Sequence record: OR352942.1
Source: Escherichia phage AV112
DNA: 64,000 nt
Direction: 5' to 3' (one strand)
Shown here: positions 8,151 to 49,733 of the stretch, one piece after another
Layout of the letters: each line of letters starts with the position of its first letter
Numbering within the stretch: position 1 is the first letter of the stretch
Translations under genes and position numbers: made by a program
The notes under the pieces: model-generated
Seen by the model: only the letters and a program-made list of their open reading frames with translations
What the model was told of the DNA's origin: nothing
Databases searched by the model: none

Positions 8151-8192
8151 AATTAAGCCTTATTAAAATTAAAATGAAACTCCCGAAGGAGC

Positions 8193-10010
8193 TTAGGACA
8201 TCCATTCTTTACGAAGTTCTGAATCGTCACCCAACAACATTTCAAAGAGTTCTTTCCAATTTTCAGGAAGTTTAACTACGTCGTACACAGGGTTCTGAAT
8301 CATTTCACGATATTCTGACTTTTCAAGGGAGCCTAATCCCTTGATGTATCGAATACTATGCTTAGGAAGTGTATCTTTAGCTTCTTCATACTCAGCTACA
8401 GTATAAAACCATTTTTGAGTTTTGCCAATTTGTGCAATAATTACAGGCGTTTTAACAAAGCGAATACGTCCTTGTTCAAACAATTCAGGCCAATTACTAA
8501 AGAAAGCAAGCAAAGCCGGATAAATACTTCCAAGACCATCATGATCGGCATCGGTCATAATTGCAATATTACGATAGTTCGTATTCTCTGCCTTTTCACC
8601 AAGAATAAGACCTGTGATAGCACAGATATCAAAGAGCTCTTTGTTCTTCATCATATCGGCATATGACATACCCCAGCTATTCATCACCTTACCACGTAAT
8701 GGGAATCCGCCGTGTAGTTCACGGTCACGAACATCAATGAGATAACCAATTGCCGAATCACCTTCTGTTAAAAACAATGTCGTATCTGCATCTTTACCAC
8801 ATTGGTTAGCTTTAATATGCTTATGAACCTTAGCTTTAGTTGCCTTTTTAGCTGCTTTAGTTTCTGCAGCCTTTTCTGCCGCCAATTTACGAGCTAATGC
8901 TGCTTCAACAATAGGCATAATCAAGGCTTCGTTTTTAAGAAGTGCCTGAGCAATTTTCTTAGCATCTAATTGGATATGATTACGAATATCACCATACGTT
9001 GACGTTAAACGTTCTTTAGTCTGAGAATCAAAACGCATGTTGCTCATGTCTCTAATAAACATCAACATTGTGAGGCATTCTTTAACACGAGCTTTAGTGA
9101 CTTCAATACCCTTATATTTCTTTTTAATGCCAGGCAAAAGATGTTCGCAAATATCATCCATTACACATTCAACATGATGACCACCATTTTTAGTATGGAT
9201 GTTATTCACATAAGTTAAATGACGGAAGCCATCTGGTGATGTTGTGAATGCTATAGAGACTTTATCATTTTCTTGAATGATGTTATCTTCACCAAATTGT
9301 TTAGCAAATCGTTTAAAATTACCATCAACCTTTTTACCATTAAATGTGAACTTGATATCAGGATAAACGACTGCCAATGTTTGAAGACGGTCTAAAGTAA
9401 TATCTAAATAAATTTGAGATAAATTATGCTCTTCAAATGAAGAGAAATCAGGAGTGAAGATTACTTTAGTGCCTTTACCTTTAGATTTCTTAGAAGACCA
9501 TGATTTGTTTTCCATTCCGTTTGAACAGTTAACAGTGATTTCATTTTCGCCATCTGACGTGATGCCTGTAAACAACGTAGAGAAGATATTAGTTAAACTA
9601 CTCCCGACGCCGTTCATACCACCAGTCTTGCGTTCAGAGTCGTCACCAAAGTTACCGCCAGCCTTTGGAATAGTCCAGGCTGCTACAGGCCCAGGAATCT
9701 GTTCACCATTTTGGTCGGTGACCATTGCTTGAGGAATACCACGTCCGTTATCTTCCACTGAGACTTGATTATTTTTAATTTGCACATCAATTTTATTTGC
9801 AAACTTAAATGATGTACGAATAGCTTCATCAACCGAGTTGTCAATAATCTCATCGATTAATTTAACCAGACCAGGAACATATTCAACTTGTTGATATTTA
9901 CCAAACAAAAAACGCTCGTGGGCTTCTTTGGCCGAAGAACCAATATACATGCCACTACGTTTCTTAATATGTTCTACATCTGACAATACCTTAATTTCAT
10001 TTTTAATCAT
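8193..10010 (-). CDS. 39: DNA topoisomerase II large subunit (GyrB-like ATPase), unsplit 605-aa form
   Basis: GyrB-type N-terminus with motifs IDEIIDNSVDEA and EDNGRGIP plus a Toprim-like C-terminal half; no separate gene 60. Confidence 0.9.
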   Translation of the reverse strand: MIKNEIKVLSDVEHIKKRSGMYIGSSAKEAHERFLFGKYQQVEYVPGLVKLIDEIIDNSVDEAIRTSFKFANKIDVQIKNNQVSVEDNGRGIPQAMVTDQNGEQIPGPVAAWTIPKAGGNFGDDSERKTGGMNGVGSSLTNIFSTLFTGITSDGENEITVNCSNGMENKSWSSKKSKGKGTKVIFTPDFSSFEEHNLSQIYLDITLDRLQTLAVVYPDIKFTFNGKKVDGNFKRFAKQFGEDNIIQENDKVSIAFTTSPDGFRHLTYVNNIHTKNGGHHVECVMDDICEHLLPGIKKKYKGIEVTKARVKECLTMLMFIRDMSNMRFDSQTKERLTSTYGDIRNHIQLDAKKIAQALLKNEALIMPIVEAALARKLAAEKAAETKAAKKATKAKVHKHIKANQCGKDADTTLFLTEGDSAIGYLIDVRDRELHGGFPLRGKVMNSWGMSYADMMKNKELFDICAITGLILGEKAENTNYRNIAIMTDADHDGLGSIYPALLAFFSNWPELFEQGRIRFVKTPVIIAQIGKTQKWFYTVAEYEEAKDTLPKHSIRYIKGLGSLEKSEYREMIQNPVYDVVKLPENWKELFEMLLGDDSELRKEWMS

Positions 10011-11094: not shown

Positions 11095-11321
11095 TAGTAA
11101 GTTTCCTTCCAATAAGTTGTACCATTTTCAGTGATTTCACGGAAGATACCATAGATAGGCATTTCATCACCGAGTTTTTCGTAAACGTAAACCACTTCAG
11201 TGTAGCATAAAAATTCTGTCCAGTTTTTCTGTACAACAACTAAATCAGGATTAAACAGAACATCTTCAAACTCATCGATGTTTGAATCAGTAGTTACGTT
11301 TTTAATGATTTGACGTTTCAT
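11094..11321 (-). CDS. hypothetical protein (about 75 aa; start taken at MKRQ)
   Basis: The ORF-track first ATG (11366) lies inside the PeSL cassette; internal ATG at 11321 has a GAGGAG Shine-Dalgarno. Confidence 0.4.
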
Positions 11322-11378
11322 AATATTCTCCTCTTGTTTTGATAGGTCTATAGTATCATAGGCCATAGTTGTTGTACA
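11322..11378 (-). promoter_or_regulatory. PeSL-like early promoter/stem-loop cassette
   Basis: Minus strand TGTACA -35-like, TACTAT -10-like, GAGGAG before the ATG. Confidence 0.4.
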
Positions 11379-11903
11379 TCATTTTAGCAAAATAAAATCA
11401 ACTTGTTCTGCCAATGAACGTCTGAACATTAATTGACAACTTCCGAGGATGAAATCAGGTGCTTCATAGACCGCGATGTAGTATCCTTTAGCTTTCAAGA
11501 GTTCAACATCCACCTGGTCATCAAACCATGCATAAACCGCGTCAACACTTTCAAATCCAAAATAGAGCCCTTTAGCCCAATCTTCACTCAATTCAAATGT
11601 TTGCTCAATTCTATAGTATCTTAAGATATTTTGTTCAAGGAGTTTGTCTTCATTTACTGTAGGACGATTAGGGACATTATAGTTGTCGCCGTGATGGTAG
11701 AAGTTACCTGAGAGTATTCCATGCTTATCAAGGAACTCCCATGTTTCTTCAGAGTTGTCGGTGCCCGTCCAACCGTATGGCGAACGAGGTTCTTTATTCC
11801 AAGAGGTTTCCCAAATTCTGACGGCTTTACCATCTTCGATAGCAATTCCTGGTAATGATTCACGTTGAGTACAAAAACTACGTTCTACGCGGTAAACTAA
11901 CAT
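11379..11903 (-). CDS. hypothetical protein (174 aa)
   Basis: ORF with its own PeSL cassette; no recognisable motif. Confidence 0.45.
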   Translation of the reverse strand: MLVYRVERSFCTQRESLPGIAIEDGKAVRIWETSWNKEPRSPYGWTGTDNSEETWEFLDKHGILSGNFYHHGDNYNVPNRPTVNEDKLLEQNILRYYRIEQTFELSEDWAKGLYFGFESVDAVYAWFDDQVDVELLKAKGYYIAVYEAPDFILGSCQLMFRRSLAEQVDFILLK

Positions 11904-25330: not shown

Positions 25331-26773
25331 TTAAAATTTTAACTCATTGGCTAAGCTATCTAGGTCAGCACGTGTTGCTTTGGCTTTACCTACGCGTTCC
25401 GTACGATTCGCCTCTGCCTGACGCATCTGAGCACCTGCGTTTTCATTTACTGTGTTAGGTGTGTTCATGCCTTCTTGCTCAATCTCAACCCATTTCTGGT
25501 TGCCTTTGCGTACACCCATCAGGAATTTATTCCACTTATTCTTATCGCCGTATCGTGATTTGATTTGTTTGATAAGTTGTTGTTCAGCTTGTGCAAGTTC
25601 TTCGGTTTCAATTACGGCCAACATGAAATCTGCTGTTGCTGGTAAACCTGCTGATTCTGCAATATCACTCATGTTCATATCCGAAGCATCCCATGCTGCA
25701 CGTCCTACTTGAGCTGCAGTCCATAGAACTGTTTCAGATTCTACTGCTAATGCACGAAGTTCTTCTGCGATAGCTTTAACTAATGTGTAGCTATTTTCAG
25801 TGTAAACTCTGATACGACAAGACCCACAAATACCTAAGTAATCAACCATGATTACAGATGGCACAAAGTTCTTCTTGAGTTTCAATTCATTAAGCAATGC
25901 ACGGAATGTATTAGCATTAGCTCCGCCAGTAGGATACTGTTTAACTACTAAACGTCCTAATGTGGATTTTGAACGCCATTTTTCCATCTTGGCTTTATAT
26001 TCAGCATAAGATACGTTACCATCATCAATATCATCAAGTGATACGTCAAGCATGTTTGCATCTATACGCTTAGCGCAAACTTCTTCGGCCATTTCCATGG
26101 AAATATAAAGAACATTATGACCTGTTTGAAGATAATCTGCAGCAAGTGAACAAAGGCCTAAAGATTTACCAACGTTAACACCAGCCATTAAAACGTTTAG
26201 TGTACCAGTTTCAGCACCACCTTTAGTGATTTTATTCAGAATGTTTAATTTGAACGGGACCTTACGTGCTTTGTTCAGATAAGAAAGCCAGCGTGCTTCA
26301 TAGTCTTCCATCCAGTCATGTCCAACATAACTATCAAACGAAATTGAAAGTGCTTGACGCATAATATCAGGAATAGCTCCTACGTCAGGCATTTTCTTGT
26401 TACGTTGTTCTGGAGGTAGTTCAGCATTAGACTGAATCTCAATGATTTTGGACGTAGCGTTATACATCGCTTTTTGCTGGACGTATTTCTCAGTTTCTTT
26501 AACCAACCATTCGTGGTCTTCAGGAGTATCAGCCAATTTTTCAATTAGGTCTGAAGTTCCTTTATATTCAGCTTCAGTTAAAGAACTGTTATCTAAAGCC
26601 ACCTTTAATGCATTTATAGACGGCATTGCATTATATTCGTTAACGTGGCTCTTTATAATTTTAAAGACATTTTTTGCCGGTCCACGCTCAAAATACTCAG
26701 AATCCATATAAGGCCAGACCTTAGAAAAATAAGCCTGGTCATATACTAGATGAGACAAAATAATTTCTACCAC
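25331..26773 (-). CDS. 41: replicative DNA helicase (DnaB-like), 480 aa
   Basis: RecA-like core with Walker A GVNVGKS; size and position as T4 gp41. Confidence 0.9.
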   Translation of the reverse strand: MVEIILSHLVYDQAYFSKVWPYMDSEYFERGPAKNVFKIIKSHVNEYNAMPSINALKVALDNSSLTEAEYKGTSDLIEKLADTPEDHEWLVKETEKYVQQKAMYNATSKIIEIQSNAELPPEQRNKKMPDVGAIPDIMRQALSISFDSYVGHDWMEDYEARWLSYLNKARKVPFKLNILNKITKGGAETGTLNVLMAGVNVGKSLGLCSLAADYLQTGHNVLYISMEMAEEVCAKRIDANMLDVSLDDIDDGNVSYAEYKAKMEKWRSKSTLGRLVVKQYPTGGANANTFRALLNELKLKKNFVPSVIMVDYLGICGSCRIRVYTENSYTLVKAIAEELRALAVESETVLWTAAQVGRAAWDASDMNMSDIAESAGLPATADFMLAVIETEELAQAEQQLIKQIKSRYGDKNKWNKFLMGVRKGNQKWVEIEQEGMNTPNTVNENAGAQMRQAEANRTERVGKAKATRADLDSLANELKF

Positions 26774-26782
26774 GATAACTCC

Positions 26783-27124
26783 TTAAAAGAATTTAAATTT
26801 TTTCTTGGTCCGTTCATTAAAAGCTTGTTGTACTTGCATTGTAACACATTTTTCAACATGCGGTGCAAGTTCTGCTTTTCTGTCCTGGTCAAGAACTGCA
26901 AAGTCCATTACGATTTTACCATCAACCCAGTCTAGTTTTGTAATATAGACTATATGATGAGAACCATCTTCAAGTGTAATCAGAATCTCTTGAATGACAT
27001 TTTCCATTGCTGAACGGATAATTTTAAGAGATTCATTAAACACTCGTTCTTTGCGAATGTCTTCCCCTTCCGAAGAAGGGGATTCATCAACGATTTCTAG
27101 ATTTAAATCATCGAGATTATTCAT
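26783..27124 (-). CDS. 40: gp40-like protein (about 113 aa; start at MNNLDD overlapping the uvsX stop)
   Basis: Position between uvsX and 41 as in T4; call by synteny only. Confidence 0.45.
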   Translation of the reverse strand: MNNLDDLNLEIVDESPSSEGEDIRKERVFNESLKIIRSAMENVIQEILITLEDGSHHIVYITKLDWVDGKIVMDFAVLDQDRKAELAPHVEKCVTMQVQQAFNERTKKKFKFF

Positions 27125-28289
27125 CGAAATCTTCCATTTCGTCAAGGTCATTTTCTATATCTGCTGCAGACGGAGCATCAGAAGTTTTAACCGGAACTTT
27201 AGTTGTTGCTTTGCAATTAATAAGGTCGTTAACAGCGTCATCAACTTCTTTAATAGAAGAGATAGCACCTAGTTTATATTTAGTTTCAATTGCATCTCGG
27301 AAAGGTTTGTGTTTAAACAACGGTCCCCAGAATTCTACACAATCAGTAGCTTTAGCACGCCATGATTTTTCTTCACGAATCATTTCGCCTGTTTCTTCGT
27401 CAAGGAATTCACGAGCATACCACCCGGCTTTAGGCTTAACTACAAAACCAATTTCAGTTGCCATTTCTAACAAGCCACTGAACGGGTCGATACCACCATC
27501 AAAATTAACTGTGATTGGGAAAGTAGATTTTTCTTTAACGGTGCGAGATTTTTCTGCTTTCAACGTGAAGTCATAACCGGTCAATTCTGTACCTTCTTTA
27601 ACCTGACGTTTAGAGATAAAGAATACAGTGTTAGCAGAGTAAAGAATACCTGTACCACCACCCATAATCTCTTTAGGATACAATCCGCCGATTTCCATTG
27701 CTGTATGGTTAATTGCAACACACGGAATATCTTTAATAGTCAGATAAGGAGTCACAATGCGGAACAGAGATTTAAGTGCCTTAGCACGAGACATATCACC
27801 TACAACTTTCTCGTTCAATGCATCTTCGGTTTCTTTCTTAGATGCAGTATTACCGATTGAATCGATAAAGATAATAACTTTATCACCGCGTTCAATCGCG
27901 TCAAGCTGATTAGTCATATCAACTTTAAGTTGTTCGACAGATTGAATCGGAGTATGAACTACACGGTCTAAATCAACACCCATTGAACGAAAATAAGATT
28001 CTGAAGCACCAAATTCTGAATCATAGAACAAACAAATTGCATCTTTATATTTCTTCATATATGCTGCAACCATGGTCAGTCCAAACAACGTTTTAAAGTG
28101 TTTAGAAGGAGCAGCAAAAATAGTTAAGCCTGATTGCAACCCAGCATTCAGTGCACCACCTAATGCAATATTCAACATCGGAATACGAGTAGGGACTTCA
28201 TCACGATTATTAAACAGCTTAGACTTAGTCAAGTCTGCAGTCATTTTAGAAGTAGAAGCTTTAATCAGACGAGATTTTAAATCAGACAT
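27117..28289 (-). CDS. uvsX: UvsX recombinase (RecA/Rad51-like), 390 aa
   Basis: RecA-like core, Walker A-like SKHFKT region, acidic C-terminal tail; size of T4 UvsX. Confidence 0.9.
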   Translation of the reverse strand: MSDLKSRLIKASTSKMTADLTKSKLFNNRDEVPTRIPMLNIALGGALNAGLQSGLTIFAAPSKHFKTLFGLTMVAAYMKKYKDAICLFYDSEFGASESYFRSMGVDLDRVVHTPIQSVEQLKVDMTNQLDAIERGDKVIIFIDSIGNTASKKETEDALNEKVVGDMSRAKALKSLFRIVTPYLTIKDIPCVAINHTAMEIGGLYPKEIMGGGTGILYSANTVFFISKRQVKEGTELTGYDFTLKAEKSRTVKEKSTFPITVNFDGGIDPFSGLLEMATEIGFVVKPKAGWYAREFLDEETGEMIREEKSWRAKATDCVEFWGPLFKHKPFRDAIETKYKLGAISSIKEVDDAVNDLINCKATTKVPVKTSDAPSAADIENDLDEMEDFDE

Positions 28290-28382: not shown

Positions 28383-28399
28383 AGGCTCTTAACGAGCCC
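28383..28399 (-). terminator. terminator-like hairpin after the P-loop kinase gene
   Basis: Minus strand GGGCTC-gttaa-GAGCC followed by a T-rich run. Confidence 0.4.
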
Positions 28400-28937
28400 A
28401 TTTGATAATTTCTGTAATCAAATTATTACGTTCGCTTGCATTAAATCCTATAACTTTGTTAGCACCATCATGATTAAGTAATTGATACGTTTGGATTTTG
28501 TTATGAATTGCAAACTCTTCAAAATATGAAATGACTGTATTAAAACCGAATGAAGACAAAGTAATAAGGTCGTCTTCAAAACTTTCAGTCATTTCGTTAC
28601 GTGTTAAAATAATTGTGAACACATCATGGTTTTGGCAAAGACGAACATAATCCTGTTCATAAACGTCAAGAACCGAGTCCACATCTTGTCGAATACGTCC
28701 ATAAACCCAGTTACTAATATATCCACGGTCTAACAGATAAATCTTAGTAGGGTCTAAATAATTCAACATCGTTTCGAAACAGCCAACTTCATTTCGAGAT
28801 TTAACATCGAAACGTCCATCAACTGTTCGTTTAGGGAAATCAATCTTTACATATCTTTCACTAATTTCCATTATGTCATTAATGAAAGTTGTTTTACCAG
28901 CATTATCCGGGCCATCTACTAAAATAATTTTAGCCAT
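28389..28937 (-). CDS. P-loop nucleoside/nucleotide kinase (thymidylate-kinase-like), 182 aa
   Basis: Walker A GPDNAGKTT near the N-terminus and LLDRGYIS (DRY-like) motif. Confidence 0.5.
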   Translation of the reverse strand: MAKIILVDGPDNAGKTTFINDIMEISERYVKIDFPKRTVDGRFDVKSRNEVGCFETMLNYLDPTKIYLLDRGYISNWVYGRIRQDVDSVLDVYEQDYVRLCQNHDVFTIILTRNEMTESFEDDLITLSSFGFNTVISYFEEFAIHNKIQTYQLLNHDGANKVIGFNASERNNLITEIIKWAR

Positions 28938-28938
28938 T

Positions 28939-29838
28939 TTATTCCTCGATTACGACATCTTCATATTTAGGTATATTATACGGTGAAGAAATTAAAGCAT
29001 TAAAGTAGATGAACTCACCAAGACCTGGATGGAATACTTCTTCAGGATTTTCGAAATATTGAATCTTCGGTCTTCCTTTAAGAATTTGATAGTACTCAGT
29101 TTTAGTTGGTTTAAAAATTCGAATCAGTGCTTCTTCAGGATACTTATTTCTGTCGAAGCTACTATTTGGATCGGTTATATAAAGCGGTTGACCTAATTGA
29201 ATTGCACATTCAACCACTTGTTCAAAACGATAACACGGGTCACTAATTCGAAATGGATGAAAAATACCATCTAGATGAATAGGAGCCAAATCACCTACAA
29301 GACGCTGCATGATGGAAGGACGTATAACTTTCTGGGTTACGATAATCTTATTACCATCTGCACCTGCGTTAACCAGCACTTCTTTTTGACGTTCATTCAA
29401 CACAGTAGTTTGAAGTGAACGATTAACCGACAACATGTCGGTTTTTAAGAATTCGTCAATGTAAAAACGTGGTTTATTAGGGTCTGCAGTGATATTGAAA
29501 TTGAATTCTACATCAAAAGCGCCGTCATATCCAGTGATATCTGTGATTAGAAAATCACAATCATAATAAGCAATTAATGAATCAACCACAAATTCATTTT
29601 CAGACCAGAAATATTTACGAGTGTTATACGCGTTATCTTTATACCATAATGGAACAAACTTAAATTCTGGGAAAAGACGTTCGCATTCTTTAATATCAGA
29701 TGCATTACGTGGATATGTAATCACATCACCCGGATTAGCACGGTGCAAATGAAGTTGGAAGTTGCCATCCTTAAGGATAGCATACTGTCCAGTTTCATAA
29801 GACCGCATACTCAAGATAGGTACGCGGAAAATAGCCAT
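28939..29838 (-). CDS. hypothetical protein (299 aa) occupying the T4 beta-glucosyltransferase position
   Basis: ORF between uvsX and 42; no similarity to T4 beta-gt that I can recognise. Confidence 0.45.
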   Translation of the reverse strand: MAIFRVPILSMRSYETGQYAILKDGNFQLHLHRANPGDVITYPRNASDIKECERLFPEFKFVPLWYKDNAYNTRKYFWSENEFVVDSLIAYYDCDFLITDITGYDGAFDVEFNFNITADPNKPRFYIDEFLKTDMLSVNRSLQTTVLNERQKEVLVNAGADGNKIIVTQKVIRPSIMQRLVGDLAPIHLDGIFHPFRISDPCYRFEQVVECAIQLGQPLYITDPNSSFDRNKYPEEALIRIFKPTKTEYYQILKGRPKIQYFENPEEVFHPGLGEFIYFNALISSPYNIPKYEDVVIEE

Positions 29839-30554
29839 TAGTCAAGAAATCCTTTAACATAATCAAAATCACGTTCAAACACATGGGCACTTACCATGGT
29901 ATGAGTATAATCACCAACTTCTACACCACATTCGTTAGCGATATAATGAAGTAATTTTCCTTGGAGATAAAAATCCAACTGCATAACAACAGCACAGTTC
30001 TGAGAACGCATATGACAGTGGGTATAAAGCTTACCATCACGAATATAATAAGTCACTGAGTCGGTACATGGATATTCAAGTGTTTCGTCTGAATCAAGCA
30101 AAGCCTGATCAGAACTTTCTAGAATTTGGAACACAACTCTTCGAGAGTTAGGTTTTTCTTTAAGTTCTTTTAGAAGAGTTGGTAACTGGGCCGCAATGCG
30201 AGGACCATAGAAAGTGTTGAAGTTCGCAGGCAAAGCATCTGATTTTGGTTTAGAAATAAATTTAGCGACGTTAGGATATGCCTTAAATGCTTCTTCTGCA
30301 TCAGTACCACCAGAAATCATAAATTTCCAGAAATCTTCAGCATATTCATAAGAGATGCGATTAATACGTGGGTCGGTCATTTTGAATGATGAAGGGGTAT
30401 CAACAACTACTGTCATAGACCCAATTTCATTACAACGTCCAATACGAGAATCAGTTACGAATTCCGGGTTTTCTAAAATTTCACGATTGACGGCTTTAAA
30501 TGCGGATTGAAAATCTGCGGCTTTAATATATTTCATTGTGTTATGTTTTCCCAT
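29838..30554 (-). CDS. 42: dCMP hydroxymethylase (thymidylate-synthase fold), 238 aa
   Basis: Motifs SRRVVFQI and CTDSVTYYIRDGKLYTHCHMRSQN parallel T4 gp42 SRRGIMIY and CTNTVQYLIRD...NMRSND as recalled. Confidence 0.75.
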   Translation of the reverse strand: MGKHNTMKYIKAADFQSAFKAVNREILENPEFVTDSRIGRCNEIGSMTVVVDTPSSFKMTDPRINRISYEYAEDFWKFMISGGTDAEEAFKAYPNVAKFISKPKSDALPANFNTFYGPRIAAQLPTLLKELKEKPNSRRVVFQILESSDQALLDSDETLEYPCTDSVTYYIRDGKLYTHCHMRSQNCAVVMQLDFYLQGKLLHYIANECGVEVGDYTHTMVSAHVFERDFDYVKGFLD

Positions 30555-30738
30555 GTTTACCTCAATACAGTTATTATATACTCAATTCATAAAGCTTATT
30601 TGAATTTCTTAGCGATGTTGATATAACGTAGAGCTTCGGCATCGATACTTCCAAGGACGCTATGAAGGAACGCGTCGACATAGTATTCTAGTTGAACATG
30701 TTCTCTTTAATCACTTTAGCCGCTTTAGTTTCAAACAG

Positions 30739-30757
30739 GCCCATAAGGGCCTTTTTA
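30739..30757. other. GC-rich hairpin with flanking T/A runs in the 42-to-U32 intergenic region
   Basis: GGCCC-ataa-GGGCC followed by TTTTT on the plus strand and preceded by A-run on the minus strand. Confidence 0.3.
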
Positions 30758-30833
30758 AGAATTTGTTCGTTGTTGTTAATTTTAATAGTCAAAATCTCTT
30801 CGTTAAGTTGGTGGTTAAAAGTTTTTCTAGAAA

Positions 30834-31994
30834 TCATTCTGGGTACCTCAAAGCGTCATCAGAGTTAGTTATATCAATAATAGATATAGAGTTTTCCGAT
30901 AACCCATTTTTAGATAACTGACGTTTATAATATCTTTCACAATATGTACACGTCGTCCCACAGATTTCATTAGCACAATCGAAATCTGGATGTTTGAACC
31001 ACCTTTTTTCTAAAAAGCCATCTAACAAAGAGGTTTCAATATTTACCGTATGTGAAAACTCAGTCTCATTTTCAAGAGTGAAAATGGTCTCTAAAGGCTT
31101 CCACAATTCCAACAAATTACCTTCAAATTTTTCAGAAGCATAAGCTTCAAGAACTTTCAAAATGTAGTCTGTGCTACCTGTACGTCCTGAAACTTTGAAT
31201 TGAGTGATACCAATATCATTATAAAGTTTCAAATCTTGAGGACGAACAAAACGAGTTCTCAACCAGTTAAATGGATCTGTATCACGAGCTTTAATACAGT
31301 GCTGCATTGGATATCCATTTAAGGATTTGGCATCATCTACTGTAACATCAGTGCTATGGAAAATATAGCAAGAGTCACGATAACTACAATGTGTTGTATA
31401 CCCTTTACCAGCATTAGAACAGAACTCATTTACAAGAACTTCAAATATTATATTGTTCTTATTACAAAACTCTGCTGCACGCTTCAGGAAAGAAACTGAA
31501 CGGTTCTTATGAATTCCACAGCAGACCTTTTTGATATTATATTGGTCATGCAAGTATTTGATTTGAGTTACAGCATCGACATGTAGAATTGTTGAAACTT
31601 CAATCTCAATGTCTTTATTGACTTCACGAACAATTTCCATAACAACAGGGTTAGCGATAGTAATACGCCAAACGCCTATTGACCAAAGATACTGAACATA
31701 ATCCTGAATAGCTTTCTTCTTCCACTCAACTAGTTCTCTTTTTGAACCAGGATTTATCGTGTTGAGTGTATAGTTAAAGCAAATACCTAATTCGTTACAA
31801 CGTTTAACGTAATCTTCTAACATCTTTTTGTCAACGTCAGGAAGCCTAAAATCAGGTCTGGCTGCTACAAAAGCCATTTCTCTTGTAGAGCCGTATACTT
31901 CGTTTATCAAGCTATTAGGATAAGTTTTATTGAGCTCTACGATTTTATCAAGAAGAGCTAAATCAAAATTCGTTCCGATTTTAAAGGTATTCAT
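30834..31994 (-). CDS. U32-peptidase-family-like protein with C-terminal Cys cluster (386 aa)
   Basis: N-terminal region VYGSTREMAFVAARPDF resembles the U32 start; central NEFCSNAGKGYTTHCSYRDSC resembles the U32 signature; C-terminal CANEICGTTCTYC. Confidence 0.35.
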   Translation of the reverse strand: MNTFKIGTNFDLALLDKIVELNKTYPNSLINEVYGSTREMAFVAARPDFRLPDVDKKMLEDYVKRCNELGICFNYTLNTINPGSKRELVEWKKKAIQDYVQYLWSIGVWRITIANPVVMEIVREVNKDIEIEVSTILHVDAVTQIKYLHDQYNIKKVCCGIHKNRSVSFLKRAAEFCNKNNIIFEVLVNEFCSNAGKGYTTHCSYRDSCYIFHSTDVTVDDAKSLNGYPMQHCIKARDTDPFNWLRTRFVRPQDLKLYNDIGITQFKVSGRTGSTDYILKVLEAYASEKFEGNLLELWKPLETIFTLENETEFSHTVNIETSLLDGFLEKRWFKHPDFDCANEICGTTCTYCERYYKRQLSKNGLSENSISIIDITNSDDALRYPE

Positions 31995-32048: not shown

Positions 32049-32450
32049 TTATAGATTCGGTTTATATGATTTAAATGTTTCGAATTCGCCTTTATTCATA
32101 AGAGCTTTGAATTCGTCAGGACGCATAGCTTTGTCGTCGATAATCCAATCATATACTGGTTTATGTGTTAGCAAATTATGGTACTTCAATCCAATGTTTG
32201 CCAAGTTCTGAATCAGACTTGGGAGAATGTCAATTGCTATACGACCAGGACCGACTGACTTCATACCACGAGCAGTGTAAAGCGTTATGGTATGCCCTGC
32301 ATCATACAGGGCATTAATGGCAGACACCATTTCGACGTCTGGTTTGAAGTTCACGTAATCACGATTGTTATTCCACTCTGTTATACAATCATCGACATCA
32401 AAACAAAGATTAAGCATGTTTTTTACACGGGGCATTAGATTCGTTCCCAT
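32049..32450 (-). CDS. HAD-superfamily phosphatase-like protein (133 aa)
   Basis: Motif I-like FDVDDCIT, motif II-like TLYTARG, motif III-like DWIIDDK. Confidence 0.45.
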   Translation of the reverse strand: MGTNLMPRVKNMLNLCFDVDDCITEWNNNRDYVNFKPDVEMVSAINALYDAGHTITLYTARGMKSVGPGRIAIDILPSLIQNLANIGLKYHNLLTHKPVYDWIIDDKAMRPDEFKALMNKGEFETFKSYKPNL

Positions 32451-34120
32451 TGATGAGTGATATCGCCACCGATTGGACGATAGGAAACACCAGTTTCTTT
32501 ATCAGTTAGTACCCATTTACCAGGATTTTTTGTAATCAGAGTAGCCGTTACAGGTTCTGCTACGTCATAACTAATAGAGCCGTCCTGAAGTACACGGCCC
32601 ATGTTACGTAATTGCTTAGTCAGAAGTTCCATACCTTTATAATATGCGGCTACCGCTTTAAGTGGATTATTCTTGAAATAACCACCTAATGCAATCCAGA
32701 TAATTGCCACTGCCAAATGATGATACTCGTTAAACGAACTCATCTTTCCATATTTGTAAACTAATGGATTGATGTTAATAGTCACATTACAAGTTGTTTC
32801 ATCAATAGTAAACTGTCCCCAGGTCGGATTAGCGTTGAATTCATCATACCCTGAAACAGCATAAAGCACTTTAGCTTCGTCATACAATTTTGGTCCGTAA
32901 ATCTTGGTTTCGCCAAAATATCCACGAGGGTCGATAAACTTGACTTCGCCGTTATCAGTAATCATAGTATTACTGAAGTTCGGGTCACCATGAATAACAG
33001 AGTACTGTCCCTGAGAACGGTTATGATAACGAATAAGGTGTTCTAAAGCTTGTTTCAACATTGGCTTCAGACGCCCAATCTTAGTGTAGTTCACATGTGT
33101 GATTTTACCAAATGAATCAATCAGTGGTTGAATACTTTCACAACGATCAATAACTTTCGTATAGAATTCTTTAGTGAAATCACGACGAACAGTTTCAGGA
33201 CTTACAAAATAAGTGTCTGTGCTGAATTTCAGTGCGTCTAAAATTGCATCAACAATTTGTGGACGAGCAAGACTCGATTTGGATTTAATATATTCAAATG
33301 CTGGCTTACCTTTAATGCGTTCCATTTCAAAGTTATTTTCATTAACAGAAACTAACTGAGGAACTGAATCTGATTTCACTTTAAGATACCATGAAATCTC
33401 ATCTTTCTGAAGAGCTCGGCCCTGTTCGGTTAATGCGAATTTAGTTACAGTTTCTTCACCAATTTCAACGGCATTAAAACTACGATTAAGTTCACGAACT
33501 TCATGAGCTTTTTCAAGTTTAGGCATATCACCTAAATCAATTAGATTCATAAGCTCTGATTTATTGAATGCACTGCCGTAAAGGAATTCTACGAAATCAC
33601 GTCCTTTGCAGTATTCATGAATTTCCTCATCAGTAGAACCCATATAGAATTCCCAGTCTTTGAACTGATAAATTCCTACAACATTACCACCTGTTGAACC
33701 TACGTTAGTGATATTTTCACCGTCGAAATTATATCGACATTCGTCGCCCTTAACATAGATTGCGTTAACATTCCAAGACCACGAACCAAAATCAGGAATA
33801 ATATCACACCAGTTAACAATTACATTATGGCCGTCTAAATCTTTGTGCAATTTAGCAAGAGCATAAGCAGAACCATATGCTTCATCAACTGTACGAATAG
33901 TCACATTGAACCCTTCTTGCTCACAATAAGCTCGAACAGTTTCAGCAAATTTTGAATGAACTACTACAATAATTTCATCTGCGCCAAGGTCAGAATAAAT
34001 TGTATACAAATTGCTCAGAATAGTGTCTTGTTTATAGTTAACAAGCACCTTAGGAATATGATGCGTTATTGGATACAAACGAGTTGCCAGTCCAGCACCA
34101 AGAATAACAGCTTTTTTCAT
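32435..34120 (-). CDS. bifunctional sugar-1-phosphate nucleotidyltransferase / sugar kinase (561 aa)
   Basis: N-terminus MKKAVILGAGLATRL (G-x-G-T-R nucleotidyltransferase motif); C-terminal kinase motifs HGDPNFSN and FIDPRG. Confidence 0.6.
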   Translation of the reverse strand: MKKAVILGAGLATRLYPITHHIPKVLVNYKQDTILSNLYTIYSDLGADEIIVVVHSKFAETVRAYCEQEGFNVTIRTVDEAYGSAYALAKLHKDLDGHNVIVNWCDIIPDFGSWSWNVNAIYVKGDECRYNFDGENITNVGSTGGNVVGIYQFKDWEFYMGSTDEEIHEYCKGRDFVEFLYGSAFNKSELMNLIDLGDMPKLEKAHEVRELNRSFNAVEIGEETVTKFALTEQGRALQKDEISWYLKVKSDSVPQLVSVNENNFEMERIKGKPAFEYIKSKSSLARPQIVDAILDALKFSTDTYFVSPETVRRDFTKEFYTKVIDRCESIQPLIDSFGKITHVNYTKIGRLKPMLKQALEHLIRYHNRSQGQYSVIHGDPNFSNTMITDNGEVKFIDPRGYFGETKIYGPKLYDEAKVLYAVSGYDEFNANPTWGQFTIDETTCNVTININPLVYKYGKMSSFNEYHHLAVAIIWIALGGYFKNNPLKAVAAYYKGMELLTKQLRNMGRVLQDGSISYDVAEPVTATLITKNPGKWVLTDKETGVSYRPIGGDITHQWERI

Positions 34121-34161: not shown

Positions 34162-34305
34162 CTAGTTAAAGCATTCATACTTTGCTTGTAGTCCAATCAT
34201 AATCCATCCGATTATAAGAGTCGGAATCATTACTGGAGCCGTTAAGCTCCAGTAGATAGTCATGACAAGCATCAATAGTAAAAGTCCTATTGTTATTGCT
34301 TTCAT
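34162..34305 (-). CDS. small membrane peptide (47 aa), below ORF-track cutoff
   Basis: Hand translation MKAITIGLLLLMLVMTIYWSLTAPVMIPTLIIGWIMIGLQAKYECFN; ATGA overlap with the SIS gene stop. Confidence 0.35.
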   Translation of the reverse strand: MKAITIGLLLLMLVMTIYWSLTAPVMIPTLIIGWIMIGLQAKYECFN

Positions 34306-34937
34306 TGTTCGCCTCGTAACATGGCACCTAGTGCACCGCCAGGGTGGAACTTAAGGAAGTCATTAGAGGTAAATCCACGTTCAGACGAAAGGTTGATAGC
34401 AAACGTATCGATAAGCGCTAACAACAATGTAGTGGACATGGTCGGAGCCAGAGAATTCTCATCAACCTCTACTGCGATGCCTGTACAGAACGTATAATCA
34501 AAAAGAGCTTCGTATTCTTGTGGAATGTCCGGGTTACAATGCAACAGAATCTGTTTGACGTTCGGACGAATCATTTTAAGATGCTTAGCCACGCCTATCA
34601 TTTCTTCAGTTTTACCAGAACGACTAATATGAATCAACACATCATTAGGCGCAATGAATCCTGCATCACCGTGAGAATAATGTCCAGTGTTCAAGTACAT
34701 ACTCGGGATACCGAGTGAAGCAAATGTCTCAGAAGCTTTAGTTGCAATATTAGCATTCTTACCAACACCTGTAATAATTACTCGGCTTTCATAATTACTA
34801 AGTCCAGGACGTCGAAGAGTTTCTAGAATAGCATTATAACGAGCAGGGTTTTGACTAATTACTTTGGCCATAGCGGCCAAAGAAGAAGCTTGTTTTATGA
34901 TTGCGTCAATAGCGATAGTAATAGGAGTAGTTTTCAT
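34302..34937 (-). CDS. SIS-domain sugar-phosphate isomerase (arabinose-5-phosphate isomerase / GmhA-like), 211 aa
   Basis: SIS-domain features: ITGVGKNANIATKASETFASLG and HISRSGKTEE. Confidence 0.55.
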   Translation of the reverse strand: MKTTPITIAIDAIIKQASSLAAMAKVISQNPARYNAILETLRRPGLSNYESRVIITGVGKNANIATKASETFASLGIPSMYLNTGHYSHGDAGFIAPNDVLIHISRSGKTEEMIGVAKHLKMIRPNVKQILLHCNPDIPQEYEALFDYTFCTGIAVEVDENSLAPTMSTTLLLALIDTFAINLSSERGFTSNDFLKFHPGGALGAMLRGEQ

Positions 34938-34977: not shown

Positions 34978-37689
34978 TCAAAAATCGAACATATCGAACA
35001 GAGATGCTTTCTTCTCGTAATCGAGTTTCGCTGCTGATGTGAATCCTTCAAGTGGTTTAATAAATGTCTTCTCAAGGAGAACAGTGTAGTCCATCCAATG
35101 AAGTACGTCGTCTTTAATTAAATCTGTGATTTCAGTACCAGAAGGCCATGCGATACATTTATCACCGAATGGGTTTCCTTCACGTAAAGGCAGAACATAT
35201 ACTTTTTCACCTTCTACAACTTGTGGTGCATCGATATTACCTTTGATAGCACGGTTATACGTCAGAATTCCACGAATATGGAATGGGCATTTAGGACCAG
35301 GGAATCCACCTACATCATATTTAGCAATGTTATTCGCAGAAGATACTGACGCGATGCTAATATAATTCAATTGACGGAATTCTTTTTCAAACTCTTTAAA
35401 ATATTCTTGTAATGATTCTTCGCCTTCCTGAAGCATACGACGAATACATTCTTTAAGAGCTTTCTGTACTGCTTTAGGAGTCGAAGATTTCTGAGTCTCT
35501 AGACCCATGATTTTGAGTTTAGGCTCAGCGTATCTGGTTCCTTCCATATCCCACACGTTTAATGCATAACGTTTCTTACCAGTCCAGAATCCACCAATAC
35601 CTTTAGAACCGAGTGGAGGCCCAGCGATAGCTTCTCGGTCCATGAACATTAAGTGTTGTTTATTGTTCATGTATTCACACATTTCACGGAAACCTCTATC
35701 AATAGCTGGTTCCATACGTTCACGTGCAAACTTATCTAAGAAGTCTACCCAATGGTTGGTATCACGGAATTTAGATTCACCAACCTTATCGATAATTTTA
35801 TCAGCAGATACGTAAATAGAGTCTGTATCACCATAAAGAACGAAAGCTTCACCTTCTGTGCCACAAACTTCATTCAGATATTCATTAACTTTACGTTCAA
35901 TCCACTGTAAAGCCATTTGCCCGAATGTTGTGATTGCAGTAGCATTACGCAAATCGTAATAACGGAACCAAACGTTGCCAAGTGCACCATAAAGTGAGTT
36001 GATAAGCAATTTACGGTTAATTTGGGCAGTCATACCTGCAACTTCAGTACGTTGAGCTCTAAACAACATTTCATTAAGAGATTTAGCAGACAACTTTTTA
36101 ATCTTTTCTTTAATCTCATCACTGAAGTCGAAACGATAATCAACATCTAATGGTTCGTCAACAGAAAGATTAGGATTATGCAATGCCTCTTTAATTATTT
36201 CACCATTACGTTGAGCTGCAAGCATGTAACCTTTATGTTCTTTACGTTGATTAAAGACCTTAGTGATTTCAGTTGGAACAACACCGTCACGGTCTTTATA
36301 ATACATCATGCCGTTAGGAGAACAACTGTACACATCAGAAGGACGTTCAGCAACAGCGTTAATATAATCATGTAATGGAGCTACTTTAAACGTTCCTGCT
36401 ATTGTTTCTGGGCTAATATTCACTTGGCGAATAATACTTGGATACAGAGATGTAAGGTCGAAACTCATTACATATTTGTATCGATTTGGAATAGGTTCCT
36501 TAACAAAAGCGCCGGGATAAGGTTGAACCGGATGAGAACGACCTTGTGGAATCACCTTGTTCTGCTCTTTAAGGCTATTAAAAATAATAGCATCCCATGT
36601 TTTAATTGGGCTAAACACAGATTGAATCTGTATCTTAGCATAATAACCCATGTCCAAACTCAAGTTGATGAACTGACGTTTAGCATCAATTTGCAATACA
36701 CGATACACGTCGATAATGTTATAAGAAATATATCGTTGGTGATTGCTTTCACGAAGCTTAGAAATAGGGCCGTCATATTTCAGTTTACCAACGTTCAATT
36801 CAAATTCTGAAATGTAATCCAGAGAATACGACGGTTGATTGGTAAAAGAGAATTTTTTGTAAAGGTCAATGTAATCAAGAACAGAGATACCGAACAATGT
36901 AATGATTTCACGAGAACCATACATGTTTTCGATAACTTTAACACGAGTTTTACGATGTGGTGATAAACGTTTCGCAGTAGATTCGCCAAAAATATTCTTG
37001 ATTCGGTTATACACATATGGAATATCAAATGACTCAACGTTCCATCCAGTCAAAATGACAGGAGTTTTCTGTTGCCAGAAGTTGAGATATTCCATCAACA
37101 ATTCTTTTTCGTTATCGAACGGCATATAAATGATTTTATCGATAATTTCGGATGGGACTTCATCACCGCCTTGTTCTTGAAGCTTAGCCGCAATTTCGAT
37201 AGACCATTCTTCCACATTCCCGTATGGAGAATTCAAAAGGTCAAATACGTAGAACCTGTCGTCAATTGAGTCATAATGAGTGATAGCATCAATCGGATGT
37301 TTTGCTTGTGACGGCTCAGGGAACCCGTCTGGAGATGTTACTTCGATGTCGAAGTTAGCCACACGAATTTTTGTATGGTCGTATTTGATTTCATAGTTAT
37401 AAGTGTCAGACAAATACGCCAATTTGAAATCGTCCATGCCAAGTGCTTCAAGTCCGATATCTTCCATGCGTTTAATCCATTGGGAGGCATCACGCATATT
37501 GGCGAACAACTTACGAGTACACGGCTTACCGTAGATATCGAAATATTTCGTAGCCTGACTTTCCGGACAATGAGCAAACAGTGATGGTTTATATTCTACT
37601 TCACGAGTACGTTCACGGCCGTTAGAATCGATGTAACGTTCAAAAATTGAATCACCAATCTGTTCAACCGTTAAGTAAAATTCTTTCAT
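34978..37689 (-). CDS. 43: DNA polymerase (family B) with 3'-5' exonuclease, 903 aa
   Basis: Exo motif FDIEV, polymerase motifs SLYPS and YGDTDS; size of T4 gp43. Confidence 0.95.
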   Translation of the reverse strand: MKEFYLTVEQIGDSIFERYIDSNGRERTREVEYKPSLFAHCPESQATKYFDIYGKPCTRKLFANMRDASQWIKRMEDIGLEALGMDDFKLAYLSDTYNYEIKYDHTKIRVANFDIEVTSPDGFPEPSQAKHPIDAITHYDSIDDRFYVFDLLNSPYGNVEEWSIEIAAKLQEQGGDEVPSEIIDKIIYMPFDNEKELLMEYLNFWQQKTPVILTGWNVESFDIPYVYNRIKNIFGESTAKRLSPHRKTRVKVIENMYGSREIITLFGISVLDYIDLYKKFSFTNQPSYSLDYISEFELNVGKLKYDGPISKLRESNHQRYISYNIIDVYRVLQIDAKRQFINLSLDMGYYAKIQIQSVFSPIKTWDAIIFNSLKEQNKVIPQGRSHPVQPYPGAFVKEPIPNRYKYVMSFDLTSLYPSIIRQVNISPETIAGTFKVAPLHDYINAVAERPSDVYSCSPNGMMYYKDRDGVVPTEITKVFNQRKEHKGYMLAAQRNGEIIKEALHNPNLSVDEPLDVDYRFDFSDEIKEKIKKLSAKSLNEMLFRAQRTEVAGMTAQINRKLLINSLYGALGNVWFRYYDLRNATAITTFGQMALQWIERKVNEYLNEVCGTEGEAFVLYGDTDSIYVSADKIIDKVGESKFRDTNHWVDFLDKFARERMEPAIDRGFREMCEYMNNKQHLMFMDREAIAGPPLGSKGIGGFWTGKKRYALNVWDMEGTRYAEPKLKIMGLETQKSSTPKAVQKALKECIRRMLQEGEESLQEYFKEFEKEFRQLNYISIASVSSANNIAKYDVGGFPGPKCPFHIRGILTYNRAIKGNIDAPQVVEGEKVYVLPLREGNPFGDKCIAWPSGTEITDLIKDDVLHWMDYTVLLEKTFIKPLEGFTSAAKLDYEKKASLFDMFDF

Positions 37690-49262: not shown

Positions 49263-49733
49263 TTAATCATGTTTCCACACCCCGTCGGTATTTGTCCAAA
49301 GTCGCTGATTATCTGATCCTCGCCACAGTTTTTTGGTCGGAAGATTTTTCTCATACTTCCCATCAATAATAACATCAACATATTTAAGCATTTCTAGTTG
49401 TTTAATATCTTCAAACTTATATCCTGTCCACAACCAAATGCTTTTATTGGGATAAAGTTTTTTTACTGTTTGAACAATGCAATGAACAACATCTTGGTTA
49501 TCAGGATAGAGAGGGTCTCCTCCAGTTATAGTTAATCCTTCTATATAATCATTATTCAAACATTCAATTAATTGTTCCAGCGTTTCACCGGTGAATGGGA
49601 TACCATTTCTAGCGTTCCATGTTGATTTATTATAACACCCCTCGCATTTATGCAAACAACCTGTAACGAAAAGAACGACCCTGCAACCGGGGCCATTCAC
49701 AAAATCGCAAGGATAAAATCTATCATAATTCAT
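49263..49733 (-). CDS. nrdG: anaerobic ribonucleotide reductase activating protein (radical SAM), 156 aa
   Basis: Cys cluster CLHKCEGC; 156 aa; directly downstream of nrdD. Confidence 0.85.
   Translation of the reverse strand: MNYDRFYPCDFVNGPGCRVVLFVTGCLHKCEGCYNKSTWNARNGIPFTGETLEQLIECLNNDYIEGLTITGGDPLYPDNQDVVHCIVQTVKKLYPNKSIWLWTGYKFEDIKQLEMLKYVDVIIDGKYEKNLPTKKLWRGSDNQRLWTNTDGVWKHD

Follow-up and report, generated by a model that had tools for sequence, protein, structure and literature searches.

Escherichia phage AV112 (sequence record OR352942.1) carries a 386-amino-acid (aa) open reading frame (ORF) of the U32 family within the 64,000-nucleotide stretch analyzed here (the window), among genes for DNA modification. 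The encoded protein belongs to a distinct, mostly viral subfamily of U32 triosephosphate isomerase (TIM)-barrel enzymes. From the gene neighborhoods of its homologues, we infer that the phage U32 protein is probably a prephenate-dependent hydroxylase serving DNA modification. On balance, and with less assurance, we favor a more specific function: an O2-independent, prephenate-dependent C5-hydroxylase of deoxycytidine monophosphate (dCMP), working in parallel to the O2-dependent synthase of the same locus.

In RB69 and in Acinetobacter phage DLP3, cytosine is replaced by arabinosylated 5-hydroxycytosine (Lee et al. 2026, PMC13326640). The RB69 thymidylate-synthase homologue gp48 binds flavin mononucleotide (FMN), converts dCMP into 5-hydroxy-dCMP, and incorporates 18O from 18O2, while AfhE and AfhF were shown to turn arabinose 5-phosphate into UDP-arabinose (PMC13326640). 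For the flavin-bound crystal structure and the in vitro proof of O2 as the oxygen source, He et al. 2026 is cited in that paper. An earlier reading made from the letters of the window alone (the sequence-only reading) had placed the U32 gene next to a gene-42 homologue and sugar-activation genes. This placement was confirmed, and the gene belongs to a DNA-modification locus. The hydroxymethylcytosine context that comes with gene 42 did not hold, as the base of RB69-like phages is the arabinosylated one and the neighboring gene encodes the FMN/O2-dependent 5-hydroxy-dCMP synthase (PMC13326640). The proposal of an extra chemical step on the base or sugar fared no better, since the RB69 modification, in its published structure, has no step left to assign and phages lacking U32 carry the same cluster. 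The cluster of JS98 and that of Acinetobacter phage AM101 have no U32, and DLP3 likewise lacks the gene, yet DLP3 DNA holds arabinosylated 5-hydroxycytosine (PMC13326640). U32 is therefore not required for the modification; it is an accessory member of the arabinosyl-5-hydroxycytosine gene cluster. The evidence fits an alternative, O2-independent route for the same hydroxylation step better than an additional step.

Genes for making prephenate, the product of chorismate mutase, were found beside U32. Enterobacter phage Entb_45 has a gene annotated as a chorismate mutase between U32 and the synthase, and the 79-aa product of this gene matched Pfam CM_2 (E = 2.4e-10); chorismate mutases of this kind measure 75–79 aa. 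A tblastn search with the Entb_45 protein yielded 51 phage records, all T4-like, from phages of Klebsiella, Serratia, Yersinia, Enterobacter, Edwardsiella, Erwinia, Pectobacterium, Providencia, Morganella, Kosakonia, and Shewanella, plus Escherichia phage EcS1. Wherever the annotation in these rows names the neighbors, the chorismate mutase adjoins the synthase or the U32 gene. It directly follows U32 in 13 of 15 T4-like U32 loci from IMG/VR. Five further unrelated lineages (six in all) have a chorismate mutase at or near U32, either as a free protein of 107–151 aa or fused to 3-deoxy-D-arabino-heptulosonate 7-phosphate (DAHP) synthase. The fusion of locus L043 matched DAHP_synth_1 (5.9e-24) and CM_2 (2e-24), and L053 provides another example. 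Shikimate-pathway entry enzymes are unusual auxiliary genes for phages, and no other prephenate-using enzyme was found in the U32 neighborhoods. DAHP-synthase::chorismate-mutase fusions of 340–372 aa, or a DAHP-synthase-family protein alone, stand beside U32 in L039, L041–L043, and L053 (IMG/VR) and in L004, where the DAHP-synthase-family gene next to U32 spans 11145–11891.

The cellular members of the family use the same metabolite. RlhA requires prephenate, along with an Fe-S cluster, to form 5-hydroxycytidine in 23S rRNA (PMC5727448); TrhP forms 5-hydroxyuridine in tRNA in a prephenate-dependent and O2-independent manner (PMC6599085); and for UbiU/V, prephenate is the proven oxygen donor (PMC10990095). 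The sequence-only reading had described the cellular U32 proteins as linked to RNA and quinone hydroxylation, which these studies support.

To survey the neighborhoods, all ORFs of 53 U32 loci were clustered and 10 loci from GTDB were added; at 70% identity, the U32 proteins fell into 28 lineages. A homologue of the gp46:47-type DNA glycosyltransferase accompanied U32 in 17 of the 28, an AfhE-type enzyme in nine, and a SIS isomerase in seven. A thymidylate-kinase-like kinase was present in seven lineages, a dUTPase in six, and a MazG-like pyrophosphatase in five. The ThyA-like synthase occurred in a single lineage, that of the enterobacterial T4-like phages. Sixteen non-T4 lineages combine U32 with a DNA glycosyltransferase, often also with sugar-activation, kinase, or MazG genes, and have no thymidylate-synthase-like hydroxylase within 10 kb. 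The sole non-T4 match to the hidden Markov model (HMM) of the synthase (L030) was rejected, being a canonical thymidylate synthase (Pfam 2.6e-72).

Three types of gene string recurred: glycosyltransferase, SIS, AfhE, (DAHP synthase::chorismate mutase), HAD, U32; U32, chorismate mutase, glycosyltransferase, AfhE, HAD, glycosyltransferase; and MazG-like, kinase, glycosyltransferase, U32, PolIII-alpha. The MazG-like/kinase/glycosyltransferase/U32 string repeats the logic of T4 (dNTP pyrophosphatase, base-modifying enzyme, kinase, glycosyltransferase), except that U32 stands where gp42 would. Family-B polymerase, HAD, two glycosyltransferases, SIS, AfhE, U32, UvsX, gp41, and gp32 are all present in L047, a distant T4-type contig; no thymidylate-synthase homologue was found in its 19 kb, including the interval between the polymerase and UvsX. 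The reverse arrangement was seen in AM101, where the HAD gene directly adjoins the synthase, and in the Dhakavirus JS98 (L009), where a thymidylate-kinase gene lies between the two; both lack U32 and chorismate mutase. U32 and the synthase thus behave as independent, interchangeable modules of hydroxylase candidates, which disfavors an obligate partnership between them as well as a role of U32 in the sugar pathway.

Other associations were found in further loci. A conserved four-gene module ending in U32 (GP88, PF17338; a fusion of guanylate kinase and S-adenosylmethionine-dependent methyltransferase; an approximately 267-aa protein of unknown kind; and U32) occurs in six or seven lineages, mostly in anaerobic bacterial and archaeal assemblies: L070 (3044–7137, Phocaeicola faecalis), L002, L062, and L067–L069. 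Its make-up suggests that a nucleotide is hydroxylated and then O-methylated. L002 additionally has NT5C, dNK, and radical SAM genes, with a second U32 paralogue nearby. In megaphage-type contigs (L001, 466 kb, at 7447–9086; L006; L007), PolIII-alpha, in one copy fused to a uracil-DNA glycosylase domain, accompanies a dCMP deaminase gene immediately upstream of U32. No glycosyltransferase was found within 10 kb of U32 in these three, and a 5-hydroxyuracil-type or unglycosylated modification is possible there. In L005 and L036 (approximately 7.7–16.2 kb), U32 stands with a gp46:47-type glycosyltransferase, TAGT-like proteins, dUTPase, and UDP-galactopyranose mutase (GLF), which hints at galactofuranosyl rather than arabinosyl decoration of the hydroxylated base.

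The distribution of both enzymes was compared with the oxygen requirements of the hosts. Phage records with the synthase numbered 345 and those with the AfhE-type enzyme 366, with 57 Acinetobacter phages in each set. U32 was found in 221 records, all at least 80% identical. About 124 records have the synthase without U32. Acinetobacter is a strict aerobe, and its phages appeared neither among the 60 U32 matches listed nor among the ten commonest names of the 221 records. In cultured phages, U32 was confined to genera with a 5-hydroxycytosine-type synthase, and the per-genus counts agreed with this. In GTDB, just 10 U32 loci were present in 185,579 species genomes, several of them with the same architecture as the viral contigs. 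They come mostly from metagenome-assembled genomes of anaerobes (Romboutsia, Oscillospiraceae, Erysipelotrichales, Tannerella), whose host assignments are only as reliable as the binning, and from an isolate of Phocaeicola faecalis. In outline, U32 without the O2 enzyme goes with anaerobes and the O2 enzyme without U32 with aerobes, while phages of facultative anaerobes have both. The same pattern was described for TrhP and TrhO (Sakai et al., PMC6599085).

U32 is under strong purifying selection. Across T4-like genera, its identity to the window protein was 83–89%, compared with 73–82% for the ThyA-like synthase, 65–79% for the DNA polymerase gp43, 51–72% for the gp46:47-type glycosyltransferase, and 42–73% for the AfhE-type enzyme, making U32 the most conserved of the locus proteins compared. 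The ratio of nonsynonymous to synonymous substitution rates (dN/dS) was 0.03–0.08, which, together with the identity across genera, shows that U32 is not a chance ORF. Because dS was saturated to the same degree as in the neighboring genes, the conservation reflects constraint and not recent transfer.

Family membership was established by profile. Pfam Peptidase_U32 (PF01136) matched residues 94–286 with profile positions 2–192 of 233, well above the gathering cut-off (E = 6.3e-11; 42.4 versus 22.4 bits). The AlphaFold2 model, built with 40 homologues as input, was confident (mean predicted local distance difference test score 90.8, predicted template modeling score 0.90) and showed a TIM barrel that takes up the whole of the first approximately 300 residues. 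The best solved-structure match was Mk0906 (5D88; Foldseek E = 1.5e-7, template modeling score 0.67 on target), and the remaining Foldseek matches were generic TIM barrels. The Pfam check that the sequence-only reading had proposed, and its check for a TIM barrel by structure prediction, thus came out in its favor, although the U32-like region extends beyond the N-terminal part named there: the Pfam match is central. A sequence search of the PDB with the U32 protein returned nothing at E ≤ 1. The subfamily is compact, with 468 representatives (clusters at 50% identity) at E ≤ 1e-30 and 1,692 at E ≤ 1e-3 among 1.84 billion proteins. At the nucleotide level, the 1161-bp gene is 100% identical to that of Escherichia phage AV113 and 98–99% identical to approximately 150 Mosigvirus (RB69-like) records, including HY126. 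Assignment to a characterized subfamily failed, as hhalign placed RlhA first (E = 4.8e-6) and hmmsearch TrhP (12.5 bits, with 9 bits for RlhA), both weakly.

Ten cysteines (C158, C177, C192, C203, C209, C233, C340, C345, C349, and C352) are invariant in the 40 homologues. Nearly all of 121 more distant members keep C192 and C233, 78–90% keep the four C-terminal cysteines (C345 being the lowest), and approximately 60% keep C203/C209. In the hhalign alignment, C203/C209 correspond to C169/C176 of RlhA. These residues, and likewise the C-terminal cysteines of RlhA, are essential (PMC5727448). The signature-like central segment of the sequence-only reading is present (NEFC192...HC203SYRDSC209YIFHS...C233), as is its C-terminal cluster, albeit with two spacings transposed: CxxxCxxxxCxxC had been given, and the protein has CX4CX3CX2C. 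On the strength of the conserved cysteines, the protein may bind an Fe-S cluster. Relative to RlhA, the cysteine segment has an insertion and a CX5C spacing, and retains only the C-Y-I-x-H end. The classical U32 signature, which we take to read E-x-F-x2-G-[SA]-[LIVM]-C-x4-G-x-C-x-[LIVM]-S, is absent from the phage protein, where the segment reads N-E-F-C-S-N-A-G-K-G-Y-T-T-H-C-S-Y-R-D-S-C-Y-I-F-H-S. The four-cysteine motif is C192-x10-C203-x5-C209-x23-C233, versus CX6CX15CX3-4C in RlhA and TrhP of E. coli and CX6CX16CX38C in UbiU. At the K-[IL]-E-G-R motif of a late barrel strand, the phage protein reads F-K267-V-S-G270-R271-T, of which K267 and R271 are universal in the distant members (121/121) and G270 is kept in 107/121, while E is replaced by S/T.

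With these results in hand, the following mechanism can be proposed. The phage dCTPase, which appears for RB69 in Table 1 of PMC13326640, would supply dCMP, and the U32 barrel would bind dCMP and prephenate. A two-electron oxidation at C5 of cytosine would take place, with decarboxylation of prephenate delivering hydroxide to give 5-hydroxy-dCMP and phenylpyruvate, in line with the hydroxide-delivery scheme proposed for UbiU/V (PMC10990095). The electrons may leave through a cluster at C192/C203/C209/C233 and perhaps a second site at C340–C352. Phage kinases and DNA polymerase would then incorporate the 5-hydroxy nucleotide, and gp46:47 and the gp3 homologue would add arabinose. The phage would thereby hold aerobic and anaerobic routes to an obligatory cytosine replacement, as with NrdAB/NrdDG of T4-type phages and TrhO/TrhP and UbiIHF/UbiUV of E. 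coli. As a 168-kb genome at 37% G+C holds approximately 62,000 cytosines, prephenate would be used in millions per burst, and we propose that this demand is the reason why many relatives carry their own chorismate mutase or DAHP synthase.

We also weighed other functions for the protein. A prephenate-dependent hydroxylase could act on a different substrate: cytosine already in DNA, dUMP or another nucleotide, or a position in host rRNA or tRNA. RlhA and TrhP do act on polymers, the dCMP deaminase gene directly upstream of U32 in some megaphage-type contigs would suit dUMP, and in genomes of anaerobes U32 ends the module with the guanylate-kinase::methyltransferase fusion. We nevertheless regard this as unlikely, given that the steady partners of U32 are dNMP kinases, MazG/dUTPase-type enzymes, and DNA glycosyltransferases, and that in cultured phages U32 keeps to genera with the 5-hydroxycytosine-type synthase. 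Moreover, T4-type phages keep dCTP out of their DNA, so a replacement base must arise at the nucleotide level.

Still less probable is a TIM-barrel epimerase, isomerase, or reductase of the sugar pathway that makes or alters the NDP-arabinose donor. Such a role would agree with the position of U32 among the SIS, AfhE, and HAD genes, its co-occurrence with AfhE in nine lineages, the sugar-phosphate TIM barrels among the weaker fold matches, and the annotations 'putative enzyme involved in UDP-arabinose biosynthesis' and 'sugar or heterocycle reductase'. Against it speak eight lineages that combine the gp46:47-type glycosyltransferase with U32 and lack both AfhE and SIS, and by the Acinetobacter phages and JS98, which have the arabinose genes without U32; the DNA of DLP3 is arabinosylated all the same. 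UDP-arabinose is already made by AfhE and AfhF (PMC13326640), and the chorismate mutase and DAHP synthase genes, as well as the cysteine clusters, would be left unexplained.

That U32 merely helps the neighboring flavoenzyme, by providing reduced FMN or electrons, appears highly improbable. The gene adjoins that of the FMN-dependent synthase and its cysteine clusters could carry electrons, whereas U32 occurs without the synthase in 27 lineages, the synthase occurs without U32 in the 124 or so phage records mentioned above, and the synthase is active in E. coli without U32. Finally, a protease ('collagenase-like peptidase U32'), for which the historical family name and many GenBank annotations speak, can be practically dismissed and was set aside: the family name is its only support, the characterized cellular members are tied to hydroxylation and not to proteolysis, the gene lies in an early nucleotide-metabolism cluster and not among head genes, and the conserved residues are cysteine clusters.

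Several points weigh against a prephenate-dependent dCMP hydroxylase. As judged from sequence comparison, the similarity of the phage protein to RlhA, TrhP, and UbiU is marginal and its ranking varies by method; in NCBIfam, UbiU alone matched, far below threshold (19.4 bits versus a cut-off of 440). The phage protein keeps neither the canonical cysteine spacing nor the glutamate of K-I-E-G-R. In vitro hydroxylation has so far been demonstrated for no U32 protein (PMC10990095). The synthase and kinase alone suffice for aerobic 5-hydroxy-deoxycytidine formation in E. coli without U32, and RB69 gp50 figures in the same study only as a Table 1 entry, 'sugar or heterocycle reductase', matched to 5D88 (PMC13326640). 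An HMM built from 25 phage chorismate mutases found none throughout the window, so this phage would depend on host PheA/TyrA for prephenate. The survey covered ±10 kb around each homologue, and a thymidylate-synthase homologue may lie elsewhere in those genomes. The Acinetobacter phages behind the oxygen pattern represent few independent lineages. In addition, approximately 45 records of Dhakavirus/Gaprivervirus-type coliphages (JS98 and relatives) lack both U32 and chorismate mutase and carry the arabinose genes along with the O2-dependent synthase. As these phages infect the same facultative anaerobe, the correlation with host oxygen runs one way only; they are also a natural control group for the oxygen dependence of phage growth.

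The window is a segment of a T4-type phage genome of the genus Mosigvirus (RB69-like), and all genes around U32 lie on the minus strand (Table 1). U32 is found between the DNA polymerase and UvsX genes together with those encoding arabinose-5-phosphate isomerase, AfhE, AfhF, the synthase, the glycosyltransferase, and the kinase, as in the RB69 gp45–gp55 cluster. NrdD and NrdG give the phage the means to make dNTPs in the absence of O2.

Table 1. Coordinates of the features in the window
Feature	Coordinates	Strand	Basis
gp41 helicase	25331..26773	-	
UvsX	27117..28289	-	
Thymidylate-kinase-like nucleotide kinase, RB69 gp45 orthologue	28389..28937	-	phrog_761 thymidylate kinase 7e-45
DNA arabinosyltransferase 1 homologue (RB69 gp46:47; 'GT46'), 299 aa	28939..29838	-	phrog_3891; PMC13326640 Table 1
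Thymidylate-synthase homologue, RB69 gp48 orthologue: FMN/O2-dependent 5-hydroxy-dCMP synthase	29838..30554	-	Pfam Thymidylat_synt 1.9e-15; function from PMC13326640
35-aa ORF	30574..30681	-	Frameshift product of 79-aa Mosigvirus gene
49-aa ORF overlapping the U32 stop codon (ATGA), truncated copy of 79-aa Mosigvirus gene (phrog_8601)	30688..30837	-	
U32-family protein, 386 aa, ATG start, RB69 gp50 / RB69p050 orthologue	30834..31994	-	ORF; Pfam PF01136; phrog_5757; AlphaFold2 model
C-terminal cysteine cluster C340-x4-C345-x3-C349-x2-C352; candidate second metal or Fe-S site	30939..30977	-	
Pfam Peptidase_U32-matched stretch, residues 94-286	31137..31715	-	Pfam profile match
Variant U32 cysteine motif, residues 190-233: E190-F-C192-x10-C203-x5-C209-Y-I-F-H-x19-C233; candidate [4Fe-4S] site	31296..31427	-	
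HAD-type phosphatase, 133 aa, AfhF / RB69 gp51 orthologue, UDP-arabinose pathway	32049..32450	-	phrog_1238; PMC13326640
Bifunctional nucleotidyltransferase and kinase, 561 aa, AfhE / RB69 gp52:53 orthologue	32435..34120	-	Pfam NTP_transferase 8.5e-10 and weak kinase matches
SIS-domain arabinose-5-phosphate isomerase, RB69 gp55 orthologue	34302..34937	-	Pfam SIS 1.7e-10
DNA polymerase gp43	34978..37689	-	
NrdG-like activase, 156 aa, CxxxCxxC	49263..49733	-	
Anaerobic ribonucleotide reductase NrdD, 605 aa	49730..51547	-	Pfam NRDD 3.6e-171, Gly_radical 2.6e-25

The 49-aa ORF sits in the slot that a chorismate mutase holds in related phages. In Mosigvirus, the gene after U32 is a 79-aa ORF (phrog_8601) unrelated to chorismate mutase. 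Comparison of the slot in the window (30555–30840, minus strand) with that of L014 (11158–11397) revealed a 2-bp insertion in the window (TTAAAGAGAAC versus TTAA--AGAAC of L014), which frameshifts the 79-aa ORF into the 49-aa and 35-aa ORFs. We rejected the small ORFs as a decayed chorismate mutase, as they gave no Pfam match, no BLASTP alignment, and no HMM match, and the intact 79-aa Mosigvirus ORF was likewise rejected (hhalign probability 0.1%). In L015, a Klebsiella-phage-like locus, the slot is empty. Elsewhere in the window, a 273-aa ORF with a NUMOD3 motif (homing-endonuclease-like; 51538–52359, minus strand) lies directly upstream of nrdD and overlaps its start. A 366-aa ORF (7050–8150, minus strand; phrog_8302, no Pfam match) lies between the topoisomerase gene (8193..10010) and a 737-aa ORF (4531..6744), which we take to be rIIA from its size and position. 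By position, the 366-aa ORF is the homologue of RB69 gp3, the proposed second DNA arabinosyltransferase.

The U32 gene is already known in RB69, with its function unassigned in the searchable literature. RB69p050 was described in an earlier survey as having 'homologs among peptidases' (PMC8056088), and GenBank records name the gene a peptidase, a collagenase-like protease, or the UDP-arabinose enzyme quoted above. According to the discussion in PMC13326640, the two pathways by which RNA pyrimidines are hydroxylated (those of the RlhA and TrhP papers) 'do not use homologs' of the synthase; the membership of gp50 in the RlhA/TrhP family is not remarked on. The Mosigvirus pathway is still not fully characterized according to a paper of June 2026 (PMC13390438). 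A full-text literature search returned nothing relevant on U32 with arabinosylation, phage chorismate mutase with U32, or prephenate with phage hydroxycytosine. Nothing on the link to chorismate mutase, on modules with U32 alone, or on the split between aerobes and anaerobes was found in the searchable literature.

If the phage U32 protein is indeed an O2-independent dCMP hydroxylase, a gap in the 5-hydroxycytosine pathway is closed: no synthase other than the O2-requiring one is known, although the phages in question infect gut bacteria, purge dCTP, and carry an anaerobic ribonucleotide reductase. The copying of phage DNA in the oxygen-free gut would be explained, and prephenate-dependent hydroxylation would extend from RNA and quinones to DNA precursors. 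With millions of hydroxylations needed per burst, the phage chorismate mutase and DAHP synthase genes would be recast as suppliers of a stoichiometric oxygen donor. A 386-aa single chain acting on a small soluble nucleotide would offer the first tractable in vitro system for the unreconstituted U32 chemistry, and assays on it would be far easier than on a ribosome, a tRNA, or a membrane quinone. The reading further predicts that the host range and the DNA-modification state of therapeutic Mosigvirus, Dhakavirus, and Acinetobacter phages depend on oxygen. More tentatively, the viral subfamily could be the first prephenate-dependent hydroxylase on free deoxynucleotides and the main, possibly older, route to 5-hydroxypyrimidine DNA in phages of anaerobes, fed by their own chorismate mutase or DAHP synthase; the enteric T4-like phages might then keep it for the anoxic gut.

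Among known systems, Mk0906 of Methanopyrus kandleri (PDB 5D88) is the only solved U32 structure found and the best structural match, at 12% identity; it has 247 residues, an unknown function, and no C-terminal cysteine tail. The phage 5-hydroxy-dCMP synthase (RB69 gp48 / DLP3 gp80) shares the locus with U32 and would share its product, feeding the same kinases and arabinosyltransferases. The two differ in that the synthase has an unrelated fold, uses FMN, and takes its oxygen from O2; its function was demonstrated experimentally, whereas that of U32 is a proposal.

The U32 TIM barrel and the motif cysteine pair are common to the phage protein and RlhA (E. coli YdcP), which forms 5-hydroxycytidine at C2501 of 23S rRNA. 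The chemistry of RlhA, a C5 hydroxylation of cytosine with prephenate and an Fe-S cluster, is the one that we propose for the phage enzyme. RlhA, however, has 653 aa with large extra domains and serves a single rRNA residue, while the 386-aa phage protein would act on a free deoxynucleotide, consumed stoichiometrically. Their cysteine motifs differ as well (CX6CX15CX3C in RlhA versus CX10CX5CX23C and a CX4CX3CX2C tail of its own in the phage protein). TrhP/TrhO and UbiU-UbiV/UbiI-H-F pair a prephenate-dependent, O2-independent U32 route with an O2 route to the same product, and the same logic is proposed for the phage. Their substrates, U34 of tRNA and a prenylated quinone precursor, are unlike the proposed phage nucleotide, and UbiU and UbiV pair as a heterodimer in which each subunit holds one cluster; the phage protein, a single chain, has two cysteine groups. 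In these systems, facultative anaerobes have both routes, anaerobes just the U32 route, and aerobes just the O2 route (PMC10990095, PMC6599085), a distribution that is mirrored by the phage U32 protein and synthase.

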